From the NCBI GenBank assembly GCA_015493225.1, contig WGDO01000087.1:514-64513 (forward strand): DNA of 64,000 nt, written 5' to 3'. The position numbers and the translations under genes were made by a program. Numbering within the stretch: the first letter of the stretch is position 1; each line of letters opens with the position of its first letter. This document shows positions 3,850-55,770 of this stretch, one piece after another. This DNA is from Patescibacteria group bacterium (lineage in GTDB: Bacteria > Patescibacteriota > Minisyncoccia > Moranbacterales > DUUL01). The notes under the pieces were generated by a model. The model had not been told where the DNA came from and did no database searches. It was given only the letters and a program-made list of their open reading frames with translations.

Positions 3850-4644
3850 ATGCTTAACTTTGCTGCAATTTGCCCCCATCCTTTAATATTGGCACCAGGA
3901 ATTAAAAGTTCCGAGAAAAATCTTCTACAAAAAACAACCAAATTTATTGATATTTTAGCTAGTGACCTACGAAAAACAAATCCTGACAATATCATCATCA
4001 TATCACCTCGCGGACCAATGCGCTATGATAAGTTTACCATTAATTTTGAAACTTCTTTCAAGGGGAATTTTGTTGAATTTGGTGGAGATGATTATGATTA
4101 TGTTTTCAAGAATAATTTAGAATTATCCCGTCAAATATTACGCTACCTACGTAAAAAACACGCACCCGTAGATATTATCAGAGAATCAAATTTAGATTAT
4201 GGTAGCTTAACTCCTTTAATTCATCTTACTAAAAATTTAGATAAAAAGCCAAAAATAATTCCTCTAACCTTTACCGCCACCGACTGGGATGCTCAATATA
4301 AATTTGGAAAACAGCTCAGCACAATTTTAGAAGAATCAAATGAAAGTAGCGCCATTATTGCCAGTGCCCATTTATCTAATCGACTCACCGAAGAAGCCCC
4401 TGCTGGCTTTTCTCCCTATGGTATTAAATATGACTCTACTATTACTAAACTCCTCCAAGAAAATGAAATTGACAAAATCAAAGCTCTTAATCCGGAATTT
4501 TGTGAAGAAGCCGGTGAAGGTGGTCTGCAGGCAATTTTGATAACCCTCGGCGCCATTGCCCACACTCGTCACTCCTTTCATCAACTCTCCTATGAAAACC
4601 CTCTGGGAACTGGATATTTAGTTGGAAAATGGGATATAAAATAA
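3850..4644 (+). CDS. Class III extradiol dioxygenase (LigB / MEMO-like) family protein
   Basis: 264 aa. The N-terminal AAICPHPLILAPG and the later IIASAHLSNRL resemble the two His-containing motifs of the LigB-type extradiol dioxygenase fold. The function in this organism is unknown. Confidence 0.45.
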   Translation: MLNFAAICPHPLILAPGIKSSEKNLLQKTTKFIDILASDLRKTNPDNIIIISPRGPMRYDKFTINFETSFKGNFVEFGGDDYDYVFKNNLELSRQILRYLRKKHAPVDIIRESNLDYGSLTPLIHLTKNLDKKPKIIPLTFTATDWDAQYKFGKQLSTILEESNESSAIIASAHLSNRLTEEAPAGFSPYGIKYDSTITKLLQENEIDKIKALNPEFCEEAGEGGLQAILITLGAIAHTRHSFHQLSYENPLGTGYLVGKWDIK

Positions 4645-4694: not shown

Positions 4695-4786
4695 CACCCC
4701 CTGTGTAAAGGGGGTCAAATTTTCTTGTCATTTTTATTTGTCAACTAGTTGACAAATAAAAATGCCAAGAAAATTTGGGGGTTTTT
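4695..4786. repeat. Long GC-clamped hairpin repeat element, family C (cacccccTGTGTAAAgggggtcaaaTT...AAtttgggggttttt)
   Basis: Perfect palindrome tcaaattttcttgtcatttttatttgtcaac-tag-ttgacaaataaaaatgccaagaaaatttg flanked by a ccccc/ggggg mini-hairpin and a GGGGG-TTTTT tail. Other copies are at 11795, 13383 and 33593. Confidence 0.8.
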
Positions 4787-7130: not shown

Positions 7131-7571
7131 ATGCTAGAAATTATTACCTATCCAAATCCAATTTTAACCAAGCCCTGTCAACCAATTGCCAACCCCACAG
7201 ACTTAGAAATAAAACAATTAATTACTGACATGACAAAAGCCATGCGAGCTCACGACGGACTGGGTTTGGCCGCTCCTCAAATTGGAAAAAATATCCGCTT
7301 ATTTTTAACAGAAATAGACCACGAATTAATGGTATTTATTAATCCAGAGATACAAAAATTGTCCGGGAAAGATACTCGGGCAGAAGAAGGATGTCTATCT
7401 TTCCCCGGCCAATATTTACCCGTTGTGCGACCTGATAAAGTTAAAATTAAATTTACTGATACTAGTGGACAAAAACAAATTATAAAAGCCAACGGTCTTT
7501 TGGCTCGAGCTATTCAACATGAATTTGATCACCTGGAAGGAATTTTATTTATAGAGAGAACTGATTCTTAG
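7131..7571 (+). CDS. def: Peptide deformylase
   Basis: All three PDF motifs are present: GLGLAAPQIG, EGCLSFPG and QHEFDHLEG. Confidence 0.92.
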   Translation: MLEIITYPNPILTKPCQPIANPTDLEIKQLITDMTKAMRAHDGLGLAAPQIGKNIRLFLTEIDHELMVFINPEIQKLSGKDTRAEEGCLSFPGQYLPVVRPDKVKIKFTDTSGQKQIIKANGLLARAIQHEFDHLEGILFIERTDS

Positions 7572-7582
7572 CACACAAAATG

Positions 7583-7701
7583 CAAGATACAAATAACAAG
7601 ATACAAACAAATCACAATAACCAATTCTCAAAAAATATTTAAATTTTGGTTATTGAAATTTGAAATTTGTTTGTTTCTTGTTATTTGTAACTTGTATCTT
7701 G
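7583..7701. repeat. Long imperfect palindrome caagatacaa...aataaccaa / ttggttattg...ttgtatcttg (family F)
   Basis: About 120-bp inverted repeat in the def-fmt spacer. Related copies are at 22150-22250, 37283-37362 and 43621-43745. Confidence 0.7.
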
Positions 7702-7739
7702 TATTCTATATTCCATTAATTATCCCACTTAATACATCT

Positions 7740-9560: not shown

Positions 9561-11789
9561 ATGACAAAAAAACATACTCAAAAGAAAAAAAACAAAAAGA
9601 AAAAATCATCCACAAAAAAACAGATTTCCTCCAACAAAAAATTCTTAAAAGAAAAGCATAATAAAAAAAGTAAAAAAATAGCCGGAAAAGAAATTGAAAA
9701 AATAGCTAGAGTTCAAATAAAAAAATCATTTAAAGACCGTCGAAAAAAAGTTATTAAAACTTCCTATTTAACTTTTATTTTAGTTTTTGCTATTCTAACA
9801 GTCATTGTAATTAACCTACGCCACCTCTTTCCACCAATTAAAACTTCCATTAAAAAACCAGAACCTCTCAATCTTAAACAAATAGACAATGAGGGAGATT
9901 TTATAAAAATACAAAATAGCTTAATAAAAAAATCATCAGAAATTTCCATAAACAATGAAGAAAAATGTCAAAATAACATCTTATTCAATACCAAAAAACA
10001 ACGATTCGTTACTGTTAATAAAAAATATTTGGTAATTTTAAAAAGAGGAAAATTATTTGTAACAAATCTCACCACAAACAAATACATTAGTAAAACAGAA
10101 ATTTCTCCAATCCCCCTAAAGGAAAAAGAAGCAATTCAATATAATAATATTTATGCAACCGACAATATAATAACCGTCACCGGCTACCGTCAGGCTAAAA
10201 AAGCTTTAGAAATATCTCTATTTGAATTATCTCCCAATGGTATTCTAACAAGAAAAGAAACTTATGATTTACCAAGTAATAAATGTTCCCAAGATGCCAA
10301 AATAATTAACGACAAATTTATTAGTTACACGGCTCGTAATCTAAGAACAACTAATTATCCAACAATTTCAGAAATAAATATCTGGAATGAAAAACAAAAT
10401 ATATTTGATAATAAACACGTAAATAATAGTCAACTTTTTTATAATAACTCAAAATTAGACACTCCCTACCTACACACTATTACTACTTGCCAAATTAAAG
10501 ATTCTGTTCTAAAAGCTTGCCGTCAACAAAATTTCATTGATAATAAAATTGACACATTAACTATTGATTCCAATAATCTATATGCCTGGGTCTCTCATCA
10601 AAAGACAGATAACCAAATAAAAAGAACCCTGCCAACTTCTTTTATTTATCAAATTAATTTACAAGAACAAAGCAACCCCAAAATCATTCAAGTAGATGGA
10701 ACACCTATCAAAAACAATAAGCTCAAAGTGAGCGATGACTACCTTAAAGCAACTATTTATCAAAACAACACTACCGCTCCCACCTGGTTAACAAATTTTT
10801 CCAACAACAGCCTAGCCTTATTATCAATAAATTTAGAAGATTTTCAAAACAAAGGCCTAATTATAGATAATCCTGATAATTATCAAATGCTACCTTCTGA
10901 TATTTCCTATTCTCCGGAAAATAAATTCATCGCTCAAAATGATACTCTATTGGAAATAAATTCTGATAACTCAAAAATAAAAATTACCAAAGACAATACG
11001 TTATCCACAATTGACATTCCTGGAAAGATGCTTACCAGTTACAATATTCCAGAGCAAAATAAACTGCTTTTAATATATGTCAAAGAAAATAACTTGTATG
11101 CTAATTATTTGAATTATTCTAATAATTTTAATTTTGGTCAAGAAATTGTTCTAGCCAACAAAATAGATGAGGAAAATACAACCGTTCTTAAGGATGAAAT
11201 AAATAATTTTAATTTAACTAATAATCAATTTATTAGCCTACCAATTATCAATCAACTCAAAAATAATGGGCAACTCTATCTGCTAACAATAAATTCTGAT
11301 ACACTTGCAAAAGCTTATATTCTCAATATCAACAAAAACTTCCAGAGACTAAATGATGGTTGTCAAAATTCTTGCCAAGAAGATTGGACTAAGTTGCTTA
11401 CATTTTTTCCCAAAGAAAATTTAAATAAAATTTACAGTTTAACGGGCAGTTATTTAAAATCATTTCGCCTTCTTAATCAAAACAAACTACAACTATTACG
11501 CTCCATTAACTACACCCTAAGGCCAGCTCCACCAAAACCTCGTCGACCAAAAGCCAAAATCCCCGGTGGAGCCAAGGTAGTTAATGGAAGATATGTTTGT
11601 GCTAAAAAACATGACTATGTCGGCAAGAGTAAAAAAAATAACAAAGGTTACTTACATATGGATATGGAATGTTGCTTAGACCCAGATGAATATCCAAATC
11701 CTTGGTGTACCTATCAACCAGGAGAACTAAAAGTAACAAAGCTTCGTGCAGCAGACTACCATGGACGAGTTAAGAAAAAACATCACTAA
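9561..11789 (+). CDS. Large membrane-anchored extracytoplasmic protein with Lys-rich cytoplasmic tail and Cys-rich C-terminus (hypothetical)
   Basis: 742 aa. The N-terminal 70 aa are very basic (KKKNKKKK), followed by one TM helix and a long Asn/Ile-rich domain. The last 90 aa carry C..CC..C and a Pro/Lys-rich segment. No family recognised. Confidence 0.5.
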   Translation: MTKKHTQKKKNKKKKSSTKKQISSNKKFLKEKHNKKSKKIAGKEIEKIARVQIKKSFKDRRKKVIKTSYLTFILVFAILTVIVINLRHLFPPIKTSIKKPEPLNLKQIDNEGDFIKIQNSLIKKSSEISINNEEKCQNNILFNTKKQRFVTVNKKYLVILKRGKLFVTNLTTNKYISKTEISPIPLKEKEAIQYNNIYATDNIITVTGYRQAKKALEISLFELSPNGILTRKETYDLPSNKCSQDAKIINDKFISYTARNLRTTNYPTISEINIWNEKQNIFDNKHVNNSQLFYNNSKLDTPYLHTITTCQIKDSVLKACRQQNFIDNKIDTLTIDSNNLYAWVSHQKTDNQIKRTLPTSFIYQINLQEQSNPKIIQVDGTPIKNNKLKVSDDYLKATIYQNNTTAPTWLTNFSNNSLALLSINLEDFQNKGLIIDNPDNYQMLPSDISYSPENKFIAQNDTLLEINSDNSKIKITKDNTLSTIDIPGKMLTSYNIPEQNKLLLIYVKENNLYANYLNYSNNFNFGQEIVLANKIDEENTTVLKDEINNFNLTNNQFISLPIINQLKNNGQLYLLTINSDTLAKAYILNINKNFQRLNDGCQNSCQEDWTKLLTFFPKENLNKIYSLTGSYLKSFRLLNQNKLQLLRSINYTLRPAPPKPRRPKAKIPGGAKVVNGRYVCAKKHDYVGKSKKNNKGYLHMDMECCLDPDEYPNPWCTYQPGELKVTKLRAADYHGRVKKKHH

Positions 11790-11794
11790 TCAAA

Positions 11795-11998
11795 CACCCC
11801 CTGTGTAAAGGGGGTCAAATTCTCTCATTACTTTTATTTGTTAACATAGTTAACAAATAAAAGTAATGAGAGAATTTGGGGGGTTTTTCGATTAATTACC
11901 TAAAAACCCCCGAAGCCTGGACAAGTTCTTTTTTAACTTTCTATCGAAAGTTAAAAAAGAACTTGTCCAACCTTCCGCCCCCCCCCCTAAAAAGGGGA
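11795..11998. repeat. Composite repeat: family C hairpin element (11795-11888) followed by family D hairpin element (11903-11998)
   Basis: Family C: caccccctgtgtaaagggggtcaaattctctcattacttttatttgttaacatagttaacaaataaaagtaatgagagaatttggggggttttt. Family D: cccccgaagcctggacaagtt...aacttgtccaaccttccgccccc. Family D recurs inverted at 39645-39730. Confidence 0.8.
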
Positions 11999-12452: not shown

Positions 12453-13397
12453 CTAATTCTTAATTATTTTTGCCCATTCTTGCAATGCCTCCTCATAATT
12501 CCGCAAAGGTTTTCTTTTTCTATTTTGCAAAACAGAAACTTCTGCTCTTTTAGCCGGACGAGGAAATTCTTCTGGACCAACCGGAATTATCTTAGTATCC
12601 AATCCGAGTATTTTATACAGAGTTTTCAATCCCTCATACCAAGTAACTGCCCCTTCATTTACAATATGATAAATTCCAAAAGGTTCATTTTCTTCTACAA
12701 TATTTTTACTTTCCAAAGCTAAATCGGGAGCATAGGTAAATTTACTTAACTCATTATCTACCGCCTTTACTTCTTTGTTTTTTTTACCCAGATCCCCCAT
12801 TACCTCAAAAAAACTCTTTTTTCCCAAAGCATTTTTACTCAATCCTCCAAATAATTTTGACAGTCTAATAATGTAATATTTTTCACCTTGCTCCTCCACT
12901 GCTTGTTCTCCTTTGTATTTTGTCCAACCATAGCGACTTAAAGGATTGGGCTGGTCTTCTTCGGAATATTGCCAATAAGGAATAGTTTCTTCTTTACCCA
13001 TATATTGGCAACCATCACAACCACTGCCACAACAATGGGGAGCTCGTTGTCCACTCCGATAAGTCGGTCTTTTACCATCAAAAACATAATCTGTTGAATA
13101 GTGCGCCAAAACAGCTTCTAGATTTTTAGCAATTTTAGCCAGTTCTCCTGGCAGTTCTGTGTTTAAAATTTTTGCCTTGGCATATTCTTCATCATCTTCT
13201 TCACAAGAATCAACCGCATTATAAGCCACCGCATTATAAATTACATCCGGCCAAACTTCTTGAATCTTTTTTCGTAAATTTTCAAAGTCTCGTACATCCA
13301 CATCATCAATGTCCCAAGCAACCACCTCATATTCCGATTTCACCCCAGGCGCCTGCCCCTCGAAGCCATTTTGGCGAAGTGGGGTAAAGGGGGTCAA
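12453..13397 (-). CDS. dTDP-4-dehydrorhamnose reductase-like protein (RmlD family). The ORF lacks the Rossmann GxxGxxG, which lies upstream in another frame across a repeat insertion
   Basis: STDYVFDG and YGWTKYKGE match the RmlD catalytic Y/K region, and NAVAYNAVD matches the RmlD NAAAYTAVD motif. The ORF starts on TTG inside family C repeat copy 13383-13435. The canonical N-terminus MQKILILGSKGMLGSELVRLYGDGF is encoded at 13403-13519 in a different frame and terminates at a TGA inside the repeat. A Cys-rich insertion (HCCGSGCDGCQY) is also present. Confidence 0.55.
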   Translation of the reverse strand: MTPFTPLRQNGFEGQAPGVKSEYEVVAWDIDDVDVRDFENLRKKIQEVWPDVIYNAVAYNAVDSCEEDDEEYAKAKILNTELPGELAKIAKNLEAVLAHYSTDYVFDGKRPTYRSGQRAPHCCGSGCDGCQYMGKEETIPYWQYSEEDQPNPLSRYGWTKYKGEQAVEEQGEKYYIIRLSKLFGGLSKNALGKKSFFEVMGDLGKKNKEVKAVDNELSKFTYAPDLALESKNIVEENEPFGIYHIVNEGAVTWYEGLKTLYKILGLDTKIIPVGPEEFPRPAKRAEVSVLQNRKRKPLRNYEEALQEWAKIIKN

Positions 13398-13435
13398 AGA
13401 TTCGAGGTCACGAGAATCTTTGGGGGTTTTTCAGT
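13383..13435. repeat. Short family C repeat copy (ggtaaagggggtcaaagattcgaggtcacgagaatctttgggggttttt) inside the rmlD-like gene
   Basis: Same conserved ends as 4695-4786 and 11795-11888 with a short palindromic core gattc-gaggtcac-gagaatc. Confidence 0.75.
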
Positions 13436-13524
13436 ATTAAAACCATCACCATACAACCGCACTAACTCCGACCCTAACATCCCCTTCGATCCTAAAATCA
13501 ATATTTTTTGCATAAATAATTATT

Positions 13525-22093: not shown

Positions 22094-22149
22094 TTTTTAA
22101 TAATTTATTTATTAAGATATTCTATTATTGTATAACAAACAATAATTTC

Positions 22150-22250
22150 CAAGATACAAGATACAAACAAATTCCAAACACCAAATGCCAAATTTCAAAC
22201 ATTGGTTATTGAAATTTGAGATTTGTTTGTATCTTGTAATTTGTATCTTG
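22150..22250. repeat. Family F long palindrome (caagatacaagatacaaacaa...ttgtttgtatcttgtaatttgtatcttg)
   Basis: The inverted arms are separated by ccaaacaccaaatgccaaatttcaaacattggttattg. Located between rfbB and the DUF456 gene. Confidence 0.7.
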
Positions 22251-22328
22251 TTTCTTTTTCTAATACCACATCCTTATAATTAACAAACATTCAATCCCAA
22301 CCAATAAACAATTAAGTCGTAATTTCGT

Positions 22329-29441: not shown

Positions 29442-29583
29442 ATTAGTCTCACTGCAATTTTTGAATTTTTAATTGTTGCCTATTTGTACTAAACATATAT
29501 TGTTATAGCATTAAAGCTACAAAATGTCAAGTAAATTTTACTTAATATTTTTTTATTTTTAAGTAGCATTAAAACTTAAAATC

Positions 29584-29800
29584 CAAATCCACCCCTAACC
29601 ATTTTTTGTTCACGGTTCACAGTTCACAGTTCACGGTTTATTTTTTAAAAAGTTTCACAAGACAGGTGTTGGAGGGAAACTAGATAAATCCACCCCTAAC
29701 CCCTCCTTTATCCCATTACGCCAAGGCTACGCGGGACAAGCGCTGGAGGGGAACTACTATCTACCATCTACTATCTACTATCTACTATCTATCCCCCAAC
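29584..29800. repeat. Composite repeat block: aaatccacccctaacc unit, (gttcac[ag])x4, long family A unit and (ctactatc)n
   Basis: gttcacggttcacagttcacagttcacgg at 29613-29640. The unit aaatccacccctaacccctcctttatcccattacgccaaggctacgcgggacaagcgctggaggggaac is at 29686-29760. ctaccatctactatctactatctactatct is at 29761-29792 and overlaps the last codons and stop of capA-like 29785-30951. Confidence 0.8.
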
Positions 29801-30998: not shown

Positions 30999-32456
30999 TT
31001 AATTCTTAATTAATCTCTCTCCCACCAGATAAACATCGCCGGCACCCATGGTTATTAAAAGGTCGTTTGATCGAAGAGTTTTTTGAAAATATTTTATGGA
31101 TTCGGGAATAGTGTGAAGGTTTTTGACTGTTTTGTCGGGATTTTGTTTCTTTATTAAATCAATTAAATCGTCACTGGAAACTCTTCCTTGCTTCTCACGA
31201 GCAGAACCAAAAATATCTAACAGATAAATTTCATCGGCATCCGCAAAACTCTGAGAGAATTCTTCCAACAATGCTTCCGTCCGAGTAAAAGTATGAGGAT
31301 GAAAAATACATTTTATATTTTTATCAGGATATCTATTTTTAGTCGCTTGCAAAGTCGCTTGCACCTCCACTGGATGATGAGCATAGTCGTCTATAATCAA
31401 AACTCCCTTGTATTCTCCTTTTGTTTCAAATCGTCGAGCCGTTCCCTGAAAATTTTGCAAAGCTTGACGAACCTTTTGCTCGTCTAATCCTAATTTTTGA
31501 CAAACCTTAAAAGCACCCATGGCATTCAATAAATTATGCTTGCCAAATAATTGCATTTTTTCTTTGGCTTGACGAATAGCCGGACAACAACCAAATGTTT
31601 TGCCGTGGCAATTATCGTCAGCGCAAAAGCTGTCATCCAACAATACTTCCCTGGCCCCAACTTCATCATAAAAAATTACCTCACATTTTGCTGACTGAGT
31701 TATTTCCACCACATTTTTATCTCCGGCATAGGCCACCAAAAAACCATCTTCCGGAATTCGGGCTACAAAATTTCTAAACACCTGCTTATATTCTTCTTCG
31801 CTCTTAAAAAAATCCGGATGATCATAATCGGCCGAAGTTAAAATCACCGCCCGAGGATTATAATATTGTAATTTATTTTGATATTCATCCGCCTCAATTA
31901 CAAAATACTTTGCAAAGGTCGGGCCTTTGCAACTATCGGTAATTAAAGTATTGCTCTGCCACTCCAAAACCTTTGAGCCAACCAAAGCAGTTAAATTTTC
32001 CACACCTGCTCTTTCCATAGCCGTCGCCAACATCGCCGTAGTAGTTGTTTTACCATGAGTTCCGCACACAGCAATTCCAAATTCTGCTTGATTAAAAACC
32101 ATTCCCAGAGCCTGGGGATAACTCATTATTTTAAAATGCTGTTCAGTAGTCTCCATGGCATATTTTAATTCAGGATTTGTTTCCGGTTGAACTGAAGTGG
32201 AATAAATTATTAAATCTATCTTCCCTACTCCGCCTAAATCATCTTTTATATCCTGAAAACTACTCTCTAAATTTTTCTCATCAAACTTATGAAAAACCTG
32301 AATTCCCTTCTTTTTCAAAACATCATAATAAAAATGATCTCCCTCATCTGAGCCAGTAATATTTTTCCCCTGAGCTTGCAAAATAGACGCCAACGCCGAC
32401 GTTCCCGCCCCTTCGATTCCAATTATATAAATATTTTTAATTGTATCTAGATTCAT
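30999..32456 (-). CDS. murC: UDP-N-acetylmuramate--L-alanine ligase
   Basis: N-terminal IYIIGIEGAGTSALA (Mur ligase Rossmann), central GTHGKTTTTAML P-loop, and the C-terminal Mur ligase domain. It has an unusual Cys-rich insertion (FCADDNCHGKTFGCC). The last codons, IKN-stop, lie in an aattcttaatt repeat. Confidence 0.85.
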   Translation of the reverse strand: MNLDTIKNIYIIGIEGAGTSALASILQAQGKNITGSDEGDHFYYDVLKKKGIQVFHKFDEKNLESSFQDIKDDLGGVGKIDLIIYSTSVQPETNPELKYAMETTEQHFKIMSYPQALGMVFNQAEFGIAVCGTHGKTTTTAMLATAMERAGVENLTALVGSKVLEWQSNTLITDSCKGPTFAKYFVIEADEYQNKLQYYNPRAVILTSADYDHPDFFKSEEEYKQVFRNFVARIPEDGFLVAYAGDKNVVEITQSAKCEVIFYDEVGAREVLLDDSFCADDNCHGKTFGCCPAIRQAKEKMQLFGKHNLLNAMGAFKVCQKLGLDEQKVRQALQNFQGTARRFETKGEYKGVLIIDDYAHHPVEVQATLQATKNRYPDKNIKCIFHPHTFTRTEALLEEFSQSFADADEIYLLDIFGSAREKQGRVSSDDLIDLIKKQNPDKTVKNLHTIPESIKYFQKTLRSNDLLITMGAGDVYLVGERLIKN

Positions 32457-33405: not shown

Positions 33406-34251
33406 TTAAAACTCCAAAAACTTCCCTTCCAAATAATTCTTAATTGGCTCGGCGGTGGTTTGGGTAATTTTCTCCGGCAAATTATCCATCGCAAACCAGC
33501 CAATCTTATCACACTTATGAGGCTCCATATTCTTTGGCTGACCACTTTTTATCTTGGCAATAAAATTTAAAGCTACCCAGTGTTCAATTTTTTCACCCCC
33601 TGTGCTGAGCCCAGCGGATGCAGGGTAAAGGGGGTCATCCCCCCTTTCGCGAAAAGGGGGATGGGGAGTTTTTATAATATGATCAGTATGAAGCAAGTAA
33701 CCAACAATCTCCACCTTAATACCCAATTCTTCTTTCATTTCCCTAATCATTGCCTTTTCTGCCGTCTCTCCGAACTTCACCCCTCCACCAGGCTTGCTCC
33801 ACCAACCAGCCTCATTACGAACTTCACCCGCCCGCCGAATTAACAAAACTTCCTTTTTATCATTAAAAATCAAACACCCTCCCCCAACACCAATGTAATC
33901 TTTACCTTTTATTAATTTAGATTGCTCTGCATTGCTAGCTTCTCCGTTAATTATGGCTACTTTATTTTTTCTATAAATAAAAACTTGCCATAAAATTATA
34001 CCCGTAGTTAAAACTCCAAGGCCTTGCCCTATAATTATTACTTTATCATTTTTTAACACTCCATAATATGCCCAAAGCAAATATGCTAGCCAGGCTATAA
34101 CCCAAAATGAAATAGACTGTCCCTCAGTCGACTTCCGTCTATAATTTTTTCTAATTTGATCTGGTAATCCAATAACTTTTACCAATATTCCGATGGCCAG
34201 TGTCAGAAATGATACAACCCCAATAAGTGTAATTGATTGTAATAATTCCAT
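33406..34251 (-). CDS. Membrane-anchored NUDIX hydrolase (3 N-terminal TM helices) carrying an in-frame family C repeat insertion
   Basis: Nudix box GGGVKFGETAEKAMIREMKEELGI. Three N-terminal hydrophobic helices. The 27-aa segment KTPHPPFRERGDDPLYPASAGLSTGGE is encoded by repeat copy 33593-33673. Confidence 0.8.
   Translation of the reverse strand: MELLQSITLIGVVSFLTLAIGILVKVIGLPDQIRKNYRRKSTEGQSISFWVIAWLAYLLWAYYGVLKNDKVIIIGQGLGVLTTGIILWQVFIYRKNKVAIINGEASNAEQSKLIKGKDYIGVGGGCLIFNDKKEVLLIRRAGEVRNEAGWWSKPGGGVKFGETAEKAMIREMKEELGIKVEIVGYLLHTDHIIKTPHPPFRERGDDPLYPASAGLSTGGEKIEHWVALNFIAKIKSGQPKNMEPHKCDKIGWFAMDNLPEKITQTTAEPIKNYLEGKFLEF
33593..33673. repeat. Family C repeat copy (81 nt, 3n) inside the NUDIX CDS
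   Basis: caccccctgtg...cagggtaaagggggtcatcccccctttcgcgaaaagggggatggggagttttt. It has the same termini as 4695-4786 and 11795-11888 and an internal ccccccttt-cgcg-aaaggggg hairpin. Confidence 0.75.
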
Positions 34252-35919: not shown

Positions 35920-35956
35920 CTCTCTAAAAAATAAAGACACTTGAAGTGTCTTTATT
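35920..35956 (-). terminator. Rho-independent terminator of rnpB
   Basis: Minus strand: AAAGACACUUCAAGUGUCUUU followed by AUUUUUU. Confidence 0.65.
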
Positions 35957-35958
35957 TT

Positions 35959-36382
35959 GATGACCAATCTTTAAGCCGGGTTCTGTTTAGATAATCATTT
36001 ATCTACGTTAATTATTACTAATTAACTTTAGCGGTTCAAATTCTAAATTAATAGAAAATACGACTTTACATCAGATAGGGTTTACCACTCAATCCAACCC
36101 ATACTAATGAACTGGATTTCAAACTCGCCATCACTGACAAGCGCGCCGGGTAATTCCGAAAAATACCCCGACACTTTTCACCTTTCTCCAGCTCCTGCAA
36201 GCAGGGGCTGGGTAGTATAGTCTCTGCGGCACTGTCCCTGAATAATTATTACTAATTATCCGATTGGCGTTACCAATTATCATTAAGAATTTAATCTCAC
36301 GATGCCCAGACTTTCCTCCCAGTCCTGAATTTAAAATTTTTTAATAAAAAATTTTAAATTCAGAGCTGGGTAATTATCAAAT
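35959..36382 (-). ncRNA. rnpB: RNase P RNA (bacterial type A-like)
   Basis: Minus-strand transcript contains the P4 5' strand GGAGGAAAGUCUGGGC (rc of 36306-36321), the P4 3' strand ACAGAACCCGGCUUA (rc of 35972-35986), and an AGAAAGGUGAAAAGUG...CGGGGUA...UACCCGG P10-P12-like region. A P3 hairpin and a P1 pairing UUGAU...AUCAA are present. No ORF covers this 1.1-kb gap. Confidence 0.8.
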
Positions 36383-36539
36383 CAGTCCTACCTAATATAC
36401 CAGAAAAACCCTCCTTTGTCAAGATAATTTGTACATTTCACAGAAGTTAAAGTAATCAATAGCTTATCCCAAAGTTAGTGCGGTCGTCGCAACTTTGGGA
36501 AAAATTATTGCCAATAATGTAGATTGCTGTTAAACTAAA

Positions 36540-36790
36540 ATTGGTTAATAAATCCACCCCCAACCCCTCCTTTACCAAAGGAGGGGAACCAAAGAAAATC
36601 CACCCCCAACCCCTCCTTTTTTAGCAAAGGGGAAATTTTCCACAGCTTCCACCCTTTGTAAAGGGGAGATTGAGGGGGGATTTTAAAACTAAATCCACCC
36701 CTAACCCCTCCTTTACAAAGGAGGGGAAATAAGGAAATCCGCCCCTAATCCCTCCTTTATTAAAGGAGGAGAACAAAAAGGAGAAACTAA
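36540..36790. repeat. Tandem array of 5-6 palindromic units (aaatccacccctaacccctcctttNNNaaaggaggggaa, plus the cccccctttgtaaagggggg attgagggggg variant)
   Basis: Units abut directly, each about 40-45 nt. Each is a stem-loop with a 10-bp GC-rich stem and contains an AAGGAGG Shine-Dalgarno-like core. Confidence 0.85.
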
Positions 36791-37111: not shown

Positions 37112-37374
37112 CCGGCCCCTACGAAAATATGAATTAATTTTAAATTTTAAGTTTTAAATTTTAAATGAGTTTTAAATTATCTAATTTTTAATATTAAATA
37201 TACAACCATCACAAAACAACAAGGCTCTGAATGATGCGTAAAATTAATAGAAATTAAAAACTTAAAATTCAAAATTAAATATTTAATCAAAATTCCAAAT
37301 TTTTCAAACATTGATTATTGGGATTTGTGATTTATTTGTTTCTTGAAATTTGTATCTTGGAAATTTATAAAATT

Positions 37375-37906
<532 letters not shown>

Positions 37907-38764: not shown

Positions 38765-38910
38765 GCTATTTCCTAGCTTCCCCCCTTTGTAAAGGGGGGA
38801 TTGAGGGGGGATTTTAAAGATTTTAAAACTAAAAAACTAAATCCACCCCTAACCCCTCCTTTATCCCACTACGCCTAAACGGCTACGCAGGACAAGCGCT
38901 AGAGGGGGAA
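38765..38910. repeat. Family B plus family A palindromic units
   Basis: cctagcttcccccctttgtaaaggggggattgaggggggatttt followed by aaatccacccctaacccctcctttatcccactacgcctaaacggctacgcaggacaagcgctagaggggg. Confidence 0.8.
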
Positions 38911-43620: not shown

Positions 43621-43882
43621 GCAAATCTCAAGATACAAGTTACAAGATACAAACAATTTTCAATAACCAAATCCCAAACTTTTCAAACATTGGTTATTGG
43701 GATTTGTGATTTGTTTGTTTCTTGGTGTTTGTATCTTGGAAATTTATAAATTTGAATCCACCTCTAACCCCTCCTTTATCCCACTACGCCATCCCACTTC
43801 GCTAAAGCTACGAGGGACAAGAGGCTATGCGGGACAAGCGCCGGAGGGGAACTACTACCTACTACCTACTACCTACTACTTA
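43621..43882. repeat. Composite: family F long palindrome plus family A unit plus (ctactacc)n
   Basis: caagatacaagttacaagatacaaacaa...ttggttattgggatttgtgatttgtttgtttcttgg... then gaatccacctctaacccctcctttatcccactacgcc...ggacaagcgccggaggggaac, then ctactacctactacctactacctactact. The last supplies the stop of pilC. Confidence 0.8.
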
Positions 43883-55500: not shown

Positions 55501-55770
55501 TAGTTCACAGTTCACAGTTCACGGTTCACAGTTTCTTTCCTAGCTTCCCCTCTTTGCAAAGGGGGGATTGAGGGGAATTTCCATGGCTTCCTCCCCCCTT
55601 TGTAAAGGGGGGATTGAGGGGGGATTTTAAGAATTTTAAGTTTTAAATTTTTCTGCCCCAGACGGACCAGCCTGGAGCTAGAAATTTCACGAATTAGTTG
55701 AAATCCACCCCTAACCCCTCCTTTGAGAAAGGAGGGGAACTACTTATCTACTATCTACTATCTACCCCTC
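55501..55770. repeat. Composite: (gttcac[ag])x4, two family B units, one family A unit and (ctactatc)n
   Basis: gttcacagttcacagttcacggttcacag. cctagcttcccctctttgcaaaggggggattgagggg and cccccctttgtaaaggggggattgaggggggatttt. aaatccacccctaacccctcctttgagaaaggaggggaactacttatctactatctactatctac. The last overlaps the ppaC stop. Confidence 0.85.

Follow-up and report, generated by a model that had tools for sequence, protein, structure and literature searches.

A GC-rich double-hairpin repeat lies in frame within a predicted NUDIX hydrolase gene of a patescibacterium and is probably a selfish palindromic element

A predicted PQ-loop-NUDIX fusion gene carries an in-frame insert

We analysed a 64,000-nt stretch of DNA (the window) from a Patescibacteria group bacterium (GenBank assembly GCA_015493225.1, contig WGDO01000087.1), in which an earlier note had reported a palindromic repeat, called family C, inserted in frame in a NUDIX hydrolase gene. 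At 33.6% G+C, the window is AT-rich. According to the list of open reading frames (ORFs) and Pfam, the host gene lies at 33406..34251 on the minus strand and encodes 281 aa, with a PQ-loop/MtN3 membrane domain at aa 13-97 (MtN3_slv, E=5.2e-10) and a NUDIX domain at aa 125-270 (PF00293, E=3.3e-19). The Nudix box is intact (G-GGVKF-G-E-TAEKAMI-RE-M-K-EE-L-G-I, compared with GX5EX7REUXEEXGU), homologues in the PDB were found at E values down to 5e-19, and the core was modelled with confidence; by these features the protein is predicted to be a NUDIX hydrolase. The NUDIX part shared 94% DNA identity with that of a close relative, L001, and the core differences comprised 23 synonymous and 3 non-synonymous changes. 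With the Nudix box intact, this ratio indicates that the host gene is alive and under purifying selection. In the insert, the same pair differed by 3 synonymous and 2 non-synonymous changes. Two independent assemblies, L001 (ENA) and L002 (Logan), carried the same insert, which excludes an assembly artefact.

The approximately 357 nt encoding the PQ-loop/MtN3 domain (33915-34251) were absent from these closest relatives, L001 (2289-2316) and L002; the domain was fused to NUDIX in the window protein and in P0001-P0006. This difference appears to be a recent domain loss or gain.

The element occupies 33594..33673 on the plus strand, antisense to the gene, as judged by its sequence and an nhmmer match (E=2.3e-8), and belongs to a variant that we designated C+. 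On the plus strand it begins with the hairpin 1 module CACCCCCTGTG ... TAAAGGGGGTCA (33594..33637), whose first arm CACCCCCTGTG (33594-33604) and second arm TAAAGGGGGTCA (33626-33637) are split by a nested 21-nt hairpin, CTGAGCCCAGCGGATGCAGGG (33605-33625). A 25-nt hairpin 2 of a GC-rich subtype, TCCCCCCTTTCGCGAAAAGGGGGAT (33638..33662), follows, and the element ends with a 3' module of a G-run plus a T-run, GGGGAGTTTTT (33663..33673), which reads AAA ACT CCC (K T P) on the coding strand. The minus-strand translation of 33592..33672 gives 27 codons, K194-E220, with the peptide KTPHPPFRERGDDPLYPASAGLSTGGE; a tryptic peptide spanning the junctions would be, for example, GDDPLYPASAGLSTGGEK, and the insert is flanked by ...TDHII and EHWVA.... 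The element is 80-81 nt in size and contains no stop codon in the NUDIX frame, and the inserted length is a multiple of three. The earlier claim of an in-frame element was confirmed; the 27 codons lie one base away from the element limits first given, a trivial difference. Between TDHII and EHWV the G+C content is 56%, compared with 37% in the remaining gene. The copy folds as two strong hairpins in either strand (-36 to -37 kcal/mol), and it is the only strong hairpin island, and the most stable by far, among the long ORFs of the window.

To place the segment in the fold, we compared it with homologues. PDB 4dyw, the best solved homologue, aligned in two blocks (query 192 with chain 97, and query 223 with chain 103), so that the window protein has about 25 extra residues where the matching loop of 4dyw has 5. 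Seven orthologues (P0002, P0005, P0006, P0011, P0014, P0015 and P0016) have 4-8 residues at the site, compared with about 29 in the window protein, and the deeper NUDIX homologues all lack the segment and likewise have 4-8. Across the NUDIX family, the loop at this site ranges from 4 to 42 residues. The absence of the 27 residues from the seven orthologues, the deeper homologues and 4dyw agrees with the earlier claim of a lineage-specific insertion, and the alignments show the segment at 33592-33672 to be an insertion in the NUDIX gene. In an AlphaFold model built on the homologue alignment, the predicted local confidence (pLDDT) was 80-92 in the Nudix core and below 50 for residues 196-219, which had no secondary structure. 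The modelled insert sits at the turn of a β-hairpin (strands 179-195 and 221-236), as the surface-loop check proposed in the earlier note anticipated. That note had placed the insert after the Nudix helix and before the next strand; it lies one strand further on from the helix (164-176). In the NUDIX protein, the only case in which fold compatibility was examined, the insert is predicted to be an extension of a surface β-hairpin turn that leaves the fold intact.

Family C is a dispersed, modular repeat

The window contained five matches to CACCCCCTGTG with at most one mismatch, against 0.35 expected. A family profile (nhmmer) found four copies, at 4695, 11795, 13384 and 33594, all on the plus strand and with E ≤ 2.3e-8; the NUDIX copy matched the profile across all 56 positions (E=2.3e-8). 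Two copies with a long hairpin 2 are intergenic on the plus strand: 4695..4786 lies 50 nt past the stop codon of the co-oriented gene 3850..4644, and 11795..11888 lies 5 nt past that of the co-oriented gene 9561..11789. The remaining copy (13341..13431, plus strand) has a nested hairpin in hairpin 1 and lies antisense inside rmlD. The earlier note had taken its three reference copies as intergenic, which is right for those at 4695 and 11795 and wrong for the one it placed at 13383.

Beyond the window, we collected 58 further copies, three from GTDB representative genomes and 55 from metagenome contigs, using the search pattern ACCCCCTGTR-N(0-30)-TAAAGGGGGTCA, which is exact for hairpin 1. A scan of 185,579 GTDB species representatives, a set that does not include the window's own genome, gave the three loci, and a JGI metagenome scan gave the 55 copies on 52 contigs, nearly all from the sample series Ga02568xx. 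Recurrence of the termini, as proposed earlier, therefore holds inside and outside the window. The hosts were Parcubacteria-group/Moraniibacteriota-like metagenome-assembled genomes (MAGs). The same pattern had no match in viral contigs, giving no sign of a phage origin. At the gathering threshold Rfam gave no match to the element, and at E ≤ 1 it gave only sub-threshold, chance-level matches. The sample of copies is biased to intact ones, comes almost entirely from one JGI sample series and counts some orthologous copies more than once; the figures below, both percentages and p-values, are rough for these reasons.

The copies shared a common plan of 52-95 nt, in which the constant hairpin CACCCCCTGTGTAAAGGGGGTCA is followed by a second hairpin that varies and then by GGGGGGTTTT. 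Hairpin 1 follows the plan (C)ACCCCC-TGTGTAAA-GGGGGT-CA and was uninterrupted in 57 other copies. Hairpin 2 fell into at least six sequence subtypes of 20-62 nt, and nearly all copies ended in the tail GGGGG(G)TTTT. The earlier note had described the termini as shared; hairpin 2 does differ between copies, and hairpin 1 is also common to them. The GC-rich hairpin 2 subtype was also present in L012, L019, L031, L033, L038, L046 and L055. Small nested hairpins occurred in the loops of the window's NUDIX and rmlD copies, L031 and L025/L058, and the nested 21-mer of the NUDIX copy recurred in L001 and in the intergenic copy of L031. The latter combines the nested hairpin with the GC-rich hairpin 2, so that the C+ variant exists intergenically, at 88% similarity.

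The structure of hairpin 2 is conserved. In ten 54-nt copies of the AT-rich subtype, 4 of the 7 pairs showed double compensatory changes and 97% of the cells were paired, whereas slid controls gave no double changes. The count was limited to this one subtype because a mixed alignment of the short copies put the hairpin 2 subtypes out of register. A compensatory pattern can also arise without selection, through template switching within quasi-palindromes.

Searches at the peptide level were less informative. A profile of the element peptide (the duplicated KTP..DPLYTGGG alignment) found two small ORFs only among 5.8 billion proteins, and phmmer with the window's 30-aa insert found nothing at E ≤ 0.001 among 1.84 billion representatives. 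Against databases of this size, peptides so short carry no statistical power, and host genes could not be counted in this way. The database 'proteins' P0033 (55 aa) and P0034 (64 aa) consist mostly of element-encoded peptide (..KTPQNSRSSNFDPLYTGGG) and are probably spurious gene calls over intergenic copies.

Copies within genes are mostly stop-free, of length 3n and antisense

Stop-free ORFs of at least 120 codons spanned 18 of the 61 pattern-matched copies (~30%), at 14 distinct sites in 13 Pfam-confirmed gene families; about 40 copies were intergenic. The confirmed hosts were the leucyl-, alanyl- and cysteinyl-tRNA synthetases (LeuRS, AlaRS and CysRS), a GT4 glycosyltransferase, MurC, RmlD, NUDIX, Fpg/MutM, SMC, a MurE-like ligase, a rhodanese-GH114 protein, a thiamine pyrophosphate-dependent enzyme and a radical-SAM enzyme. 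All three GTDB loci were within ORFs and antisense to the T-run orientation: the copy of L012, a Moraniibacteriota MAG, at the N-terminus of LeuRS, that of L013 in the GT4 glycosyltransferase gene, and that of L014 in MurC. The L014 locus is syntenic with the window, whose MurC has no insert. The SMC copy was directly ahead of the Walker A loop and the rhodanese-GH114 copy in a linker; the Fpg/MutM host held a second, decayed copy, and the MurE-like ligase carried copies at two different sites in two orthologues. The peptide frames in use included KTP..DPLYTGGG and KPP..LTPFTQGV and, from the other strand, TPCVKGV...; at least four frames on two strands were used.

Three biases distinguished the copies within genes. 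First, the core length was a multiple of three in 14 of 18 in-gene copies, compared with 15 of 39 intergenic copies (Fisher p=0.0096). Second, the subtypes with 89/92-nt cores (92-95 nt with the T-run), which have stop codons in most frames, were never found in genes. Third, 12 of the 14 distinct sites had the element in antisense orientation (two-sided binomial, p about 0.013). Stop codons alone are insufficient to account for this last bias, because the short forms have two of three frames open in each orientation. The three biases fit a survival filter acting on inserts that would be translated.

These results bear on whether the NUDIX segment could be an ordinary lineage-specific loop expansion that resembles the repeat by chance or convergence, or else a dead pseudogene or an assembly chimera. 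The variable length of the loop in the family is in keeping with an expansion. A match to the family profile over all its positions, the presence of this nested hairpin in an intergenic copy of L031, and the use of the frames KTP..DPLYTGGG and KPP..LTPFTQGV in other genes argue against it; the predominance of synonymous changes in the host gene argues against a pseudogene, and the two independent assemblies against a chimera. We rejected chance resemblance, pseudogene and artefact on the profile match, the L031 copy, selection and the two assemblies, and consider this group of explanations barely credible.

The MurC genes were compared separately. The orthologues of L014 (182-1945) and L011 (4081-5622) were 69-70% identical to that of the window (30999-32456). 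In L014, MurC has at least four lineage-specific in-frame inserts, one of which is family C plus a partial second copy; in L011 it has a 40-residue C-terminal insert with a family-X-like palindrome (family X is described below). L013 and L014 bear the labels Lutibacter sp. and Bdellovibrionales, respectively; both MAG contigs have 33-35% G+C and carry family C, and their taxonomic assignments appear to result from misbinning.

The NUDIX site is occupied repeatedly and differently

Among the 17 closest aligned orthologues (the window and P0001-P0016), 10 had an insert exactly at the NUDIX site. Variant C+ was present in the window and L001, and the basic form of family C in L004, L010 and L064, the last being an extra orthologue from the metagenome scan. 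In L008 and L009 there were remnants that belong to the same length class (60 nt) and whose hairpins had decayed. In P0008 and P0010, a 20-residue segment was kept, and its DNA had mostly lost its hairpin potential and still ended ...ACACAGAGGGTGGAAGTATT; this insertion appears to be old and retained. A different long palindrome, family X (..GCGCGGGAAAGGTTTTGCCTC..GAGGCAGAACCTTGAGGAGCGCGG..), occupied the site in L003, L005, L006 and L007, on the coding strand, at TDHII-(Q/E)HWV, and its copy in L006 held a further nested hairpin. The family C boundaries at the site were all alike (ATTATA|AAAAC...GAAAAAT(T/G)|GAACA).

A neighbour-joining tree of low resolution, built from 137 columns of the NUDIX core, paired filled with empty sites, and C with X forms, as sisters. 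The history of the site must have included insertion more than once, precise loss, or gene conversion among the copies. We also compared empty and filled sites for a target-site duplication (NUDIX, L011 with L004/L010/L064; MurC, the window with L014) and found no clean boundaries; the exact insertion boundaries could not be fixed because the compared loops had diverged too far.

Intergenic copies and a possible role of the nucleic acid

Thirteen intergenic copies, including the two of the window, were 3-50 nt past the stop codon of a co-oriented gene; other intergenic copies were antisense between co-directional genes or just ahead of start codons. In the minimum-energy fold, the basic and long forms had 5-6 unpaired G between hairpin 2 and the U-run. 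The NUDIX copy alone folded, on the plus strand, into a long closing stem with UUUUU directly after it. A consensus promoter/terminator scan did not call the element, and in the 26-42 kb region it gave 10 terminator-like sites, no real excess over the 8.9 in shuffles. Sense-oriented family C copies may act as terminators, a hypothesis drawn from position and predicted folding; if they do, the antisense bias inside genes would be accounted for.

The element could be kept, rather than simply tolerated, for a role in the nucleic acid: it might terminate antisense transcription or insulate the gene from it, or it might fold in the mRNA so as to slow translation or make the message more stable. Such a role would suit the 13 copies at terminator positions, the closing stem and UUUUU of the NUDIX copy, the antisense orientation at 12 of 14 in-gene sites, the maintenance of hairpin 2 pairing through compensatory changes, and the filled NUDIX site in 10 of 17 orthologues. 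It does not suit the close orthologues without any insert, or P0008 and P0010, in which the hairpins decayed and the peptide length was kept. The GGGGGG left unpaired before the U-run in the basic element and the outcome of the terminator scan also speak against it, and template switching offers a source of compensatory changes that needs no selection. On balance, we regard maintenance for a nucleic-acid role as unlikely.

The rmlD copy and its broken frame

The rmlD gene (dTDP-4-dehydrorhamnose reductase; 12453..13513, minus strand) was recognized by Pfam and three-frame translation, and its frame is broken inside the element. The Pfam RmlD match of ORF 12453..13397 begins at profile position 21, and the missing N-terminus, MQKILILGSKGMLGSELVRLYGDGFNTE, with its start at 13513, is encoded upstream in another frame. 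An intact rmlD orthologue, L034, contains the element in frame at the same site (..NTE[KPPKDSRDLESLTPFTQGV]KEEEYEVVAWDIDD). The C-run of the element has 5 C in the window, compared with 6 in L034, so that the frame meets a TGA too early, at 13396-13394. The missing C could reflect a true frameshift that makes rmlD a pseudogene, a tract that is phase-variable, or an error in assembling the homopolymer.

A gene that looks intact apart from a frame broken by the element raises the question of whether the insert is present in the DNA and missing from the protein, through translational bypassing or removal from the mRNA. In the mitochondria of the yeast Magnusiomyces, the byp elements are GC-rich hairpin inserts in genes of an AT-rich genome, a setting comparable with that of family C. 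Bypassing would not demand stop-free copies of length 3n, yet the in-gene copies are enriched for both, and decayed copies persist, with their length unchanged, as normal coding sequence. Splice or take-off/landing signals were not seen, nor were they looked for. This possibility appears very improbable.

Proposed explanation

The results are probably best explained by a dispersed, GC-rich double-hairpin repeat that was inserted in the NUDIX coding sequence and is read through, as a selfish element of the type of the Rickettsia palindromic elements (RPEs). A copy of the non-coding repeat would have entered the gene in antisense orientation in the AT-rich genome of a member of the Patescibacteria, or Candidate Phyla Radiation (CPR). 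Read-through is the simplest outcome, because the copy is antisense, stop-free in the gene frame and of length 3n; the ribosome would thus add a 27-residue, Pro/Gly-rich, disordered extension at a surface turn, with the enzyme fold kept and the gene remaining under purifying selection. Family C would be a selfish, non-autonomous palindromic element that settles between genes and in frame in unrelated housekeeping genes. Inside genes, the survivors would be the stop-free, 3n and mostly antisense copies, and sense-oriented copies would be selected against, as they would end transcription.

The distribution of copies suggests that family C is or was mobile, and their reading frames suggest that the in-gene copies are translated. 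Of 60 copies, 22 had TTTT in the left flank, compared with a 15% background (p=3e-5), resembling the right-hand T-run, and 63% did not; family C may therefore prefer or duplicate T-runs. On the coding strand, left-flank T-runs are A-runs (lysine codons), which would explain the K residues beside many inserts. Such codons are frequent where AT-rich genomes encode surface loops.

Several points weigh against this explanation. A single old insertion followed by vertical descent fails at the NUDIX site, because sister orthologues carry different variants or nothing. The basic element is not a canonical intrinsic terminator, because the unpaired G-run parts hairpin 2 from the T-run, and the CysRS and radical-SAM copies lie in sense orientation. 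Read-through translation is suggested only indirectly, by statistics of frame, length and stop codons. No transposase or other mobilizing enzyme was identified (none was sought), there was no clear target-site duplication, and the statistics come from the exact-pattern sample described above, with its bias, its origin almost wholly in one series and its duplicates.

A bolder extension of the proposed explanation is an actively mobile, hairpin-directed system that re-targets A/T-run coding sites, together with on/off switching of genes through C/G-runs. Re-targeting, if true, would explain why one NUDIX position holds variants, an unrelated palindrome, a remnant or nothing; combined with the one-C frameshift in rmlD, it would amount to repeat-driven loop innovation and phase variation in reduced CPR genomes. 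We regard this extension as speculative, with only a low chance of being correct.

Other repeats in the window

Another GC-rich hairpin family (AAATCCACCCCTAACCCCTCCTTT..AAAGGAGGGG) is abundant between genes, where its copies often form tandem pairs; it was located at 29575-29722, 36536-36777, 37361-37462, 38825-38881, 43740-43791 and 55691-55743. A short hairpin with a G-run and a T-run, TCCCCCCTTTGTAAAGGGGGGATTGAGGGGGGATTTT, was found at 36648-36695, 38779-38826 and 55546-55639 (weak nhmmer match, E=0.008) and looks like a minimal relative of family C without hairpin 2. Palindromes of a further, AT-rich kind (CAAGATACAAA-type), about 130 nt long and with arms of 65 nt, lie directly behind genes at 7569-7708, 22136-22256 and 43622-43744, and also at 37303-37365; within the Mur ligase of L050, the in-frame peptide KTQETRYKIQTNNKLQDTNIETQ resembles a translated palindrome of this type. 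An RNase P RNA match at 35956-36389 (minus strand) spans 434 nt, compared with a 367-nt model.

Implications and comparison with known systems

Family C reaches three aminoacyl-tRNA synthetases, Mur ligases and SMC, and offers a concrete source for lineage-specific insertions of CPR proteins. Such inserts make proteins seem more divergent than they are, can split genes when homopolymers slip and yield spurious small ORFs, and they serve as natural experiments on the tolerance of random peptides at loops of conserved folds. In-frame colonization of essential genes by palindromic repeats has been regarded as a curiosity, most extreme in Rickettsia. The RPE-like behaviour of family C in an unrelated, free-environment, reduced lineage suggests that it is a general outcome in small, AT-rich, intergenic-poor genomes.

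The RPEs (RPE-1 to RPE-10; Ogata et al., 2000, as summarized in PMC10969869) are the extreme case of in-frame repeat insertion (PMC10969869). The analogy drawn in the earlier note stands up, as family C was found between genes and in frame within several unrelated conserved genes, at 13 or more sites besides NUDIX. The statement that such colonization is documented essentially only for Rickettsia was too strong: in-frame insertion of small repeats has also been reported for ERIC, BOX, Coxiella QMITEs and Anabaena MITEs (miniature transposable elements with inverted repeats; PMC10969869, PMC5896051). Both RPEs and family C are short, non-coding palindromic repeats, intergenic as well as in frame in unrelated housekeeping genes, which add a peptide at fold-compatible sites, and no transposase is known for either. 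RPE hosts are alphaproteobacterial endosymbionts, whereas the host of family C is a Patescibacteria-like, free-environment bacterium. Family C is shorter (52-95 nt, compared with about 100-150) and, unlike RPEs, forms a GC-rich island in an AT-rich genome and is built of modules: hairpin 1 is constant, hairpin 2 can be exchanged, small hairpins are nested in some copies, and the tail consists of a G-run and a T-run. It uses at least four frames on two strands, whereas each RPE family has one conserved peptide. No likeness in sequence to the RPEs was seen, although the two were not aligned directly. Because host phylum, length and composition differ, family C is not an RPE by descent; these features, not an alignment, set the two apart.

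The pneumococcal SPRITE elements (PMC10969869) are, like family C, dispersed, terminator-like stem-loops with a T-run that often lie behind genes and insert into one another. SPRITEs are described as intergenic, whereas family C is often found in coding sequences and its minimum-energy fold is not that of a canonical terminator. The RAYT-mobilized REP/BIME/REPIN elements (PMC3733652) are also short, GC-rich, multicopy palindromes whose stems show compensatory changes. REPs are tagged with GTAG or CGTC at one end and lie almost wholly outside genes; family C has no such tag, lies within genes in about 30% of cases and thus does not qualify as a REP/REPIN, and no RAYT gene was seen, although none was looked for. 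MITEs (ERIC, Coxiella QMITE1/2 and those of Anabaena; PMC10969869, PMC5896051) are non-autonomous, as family C appears to be, and like it sometimes extend or interrupt ORFs in frame. They have terminal inverted repeats that match an insertion sequence and target-site duplications, whereas family C ends in ACCCCC/GGGGGG (6 nt), with at best a T-run as the duplication; unlike for MITEs, no parent insertion sequence is known for it (none was searched for).

GC-rich hairpins also invade organellar genomes. The GC clusters and double-hairpin elements of fungal mitochondria are GC-rich hairpin repeats that invade very AT-rich, reduced genomes, coding regions included, and become nested in one another. 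Sponge mitochondrial hairpin elements (PMC2800124) resemble family C in being GC-rich, in invading AT-rich, reduced genomes and their coding regions, and in nesting. The sponge and fungal elements are organellar and have no sequence relation to family C, so that the likeness is one of analogy only. The literature searched, in which subscription journals were mostly outside coverage, contained no description of such elements in CPR/Patescibacteria. The comparison supports the view that family C is a new, structurally distinct family, with RPE-like in-frame colonization of genes in a new phylum.

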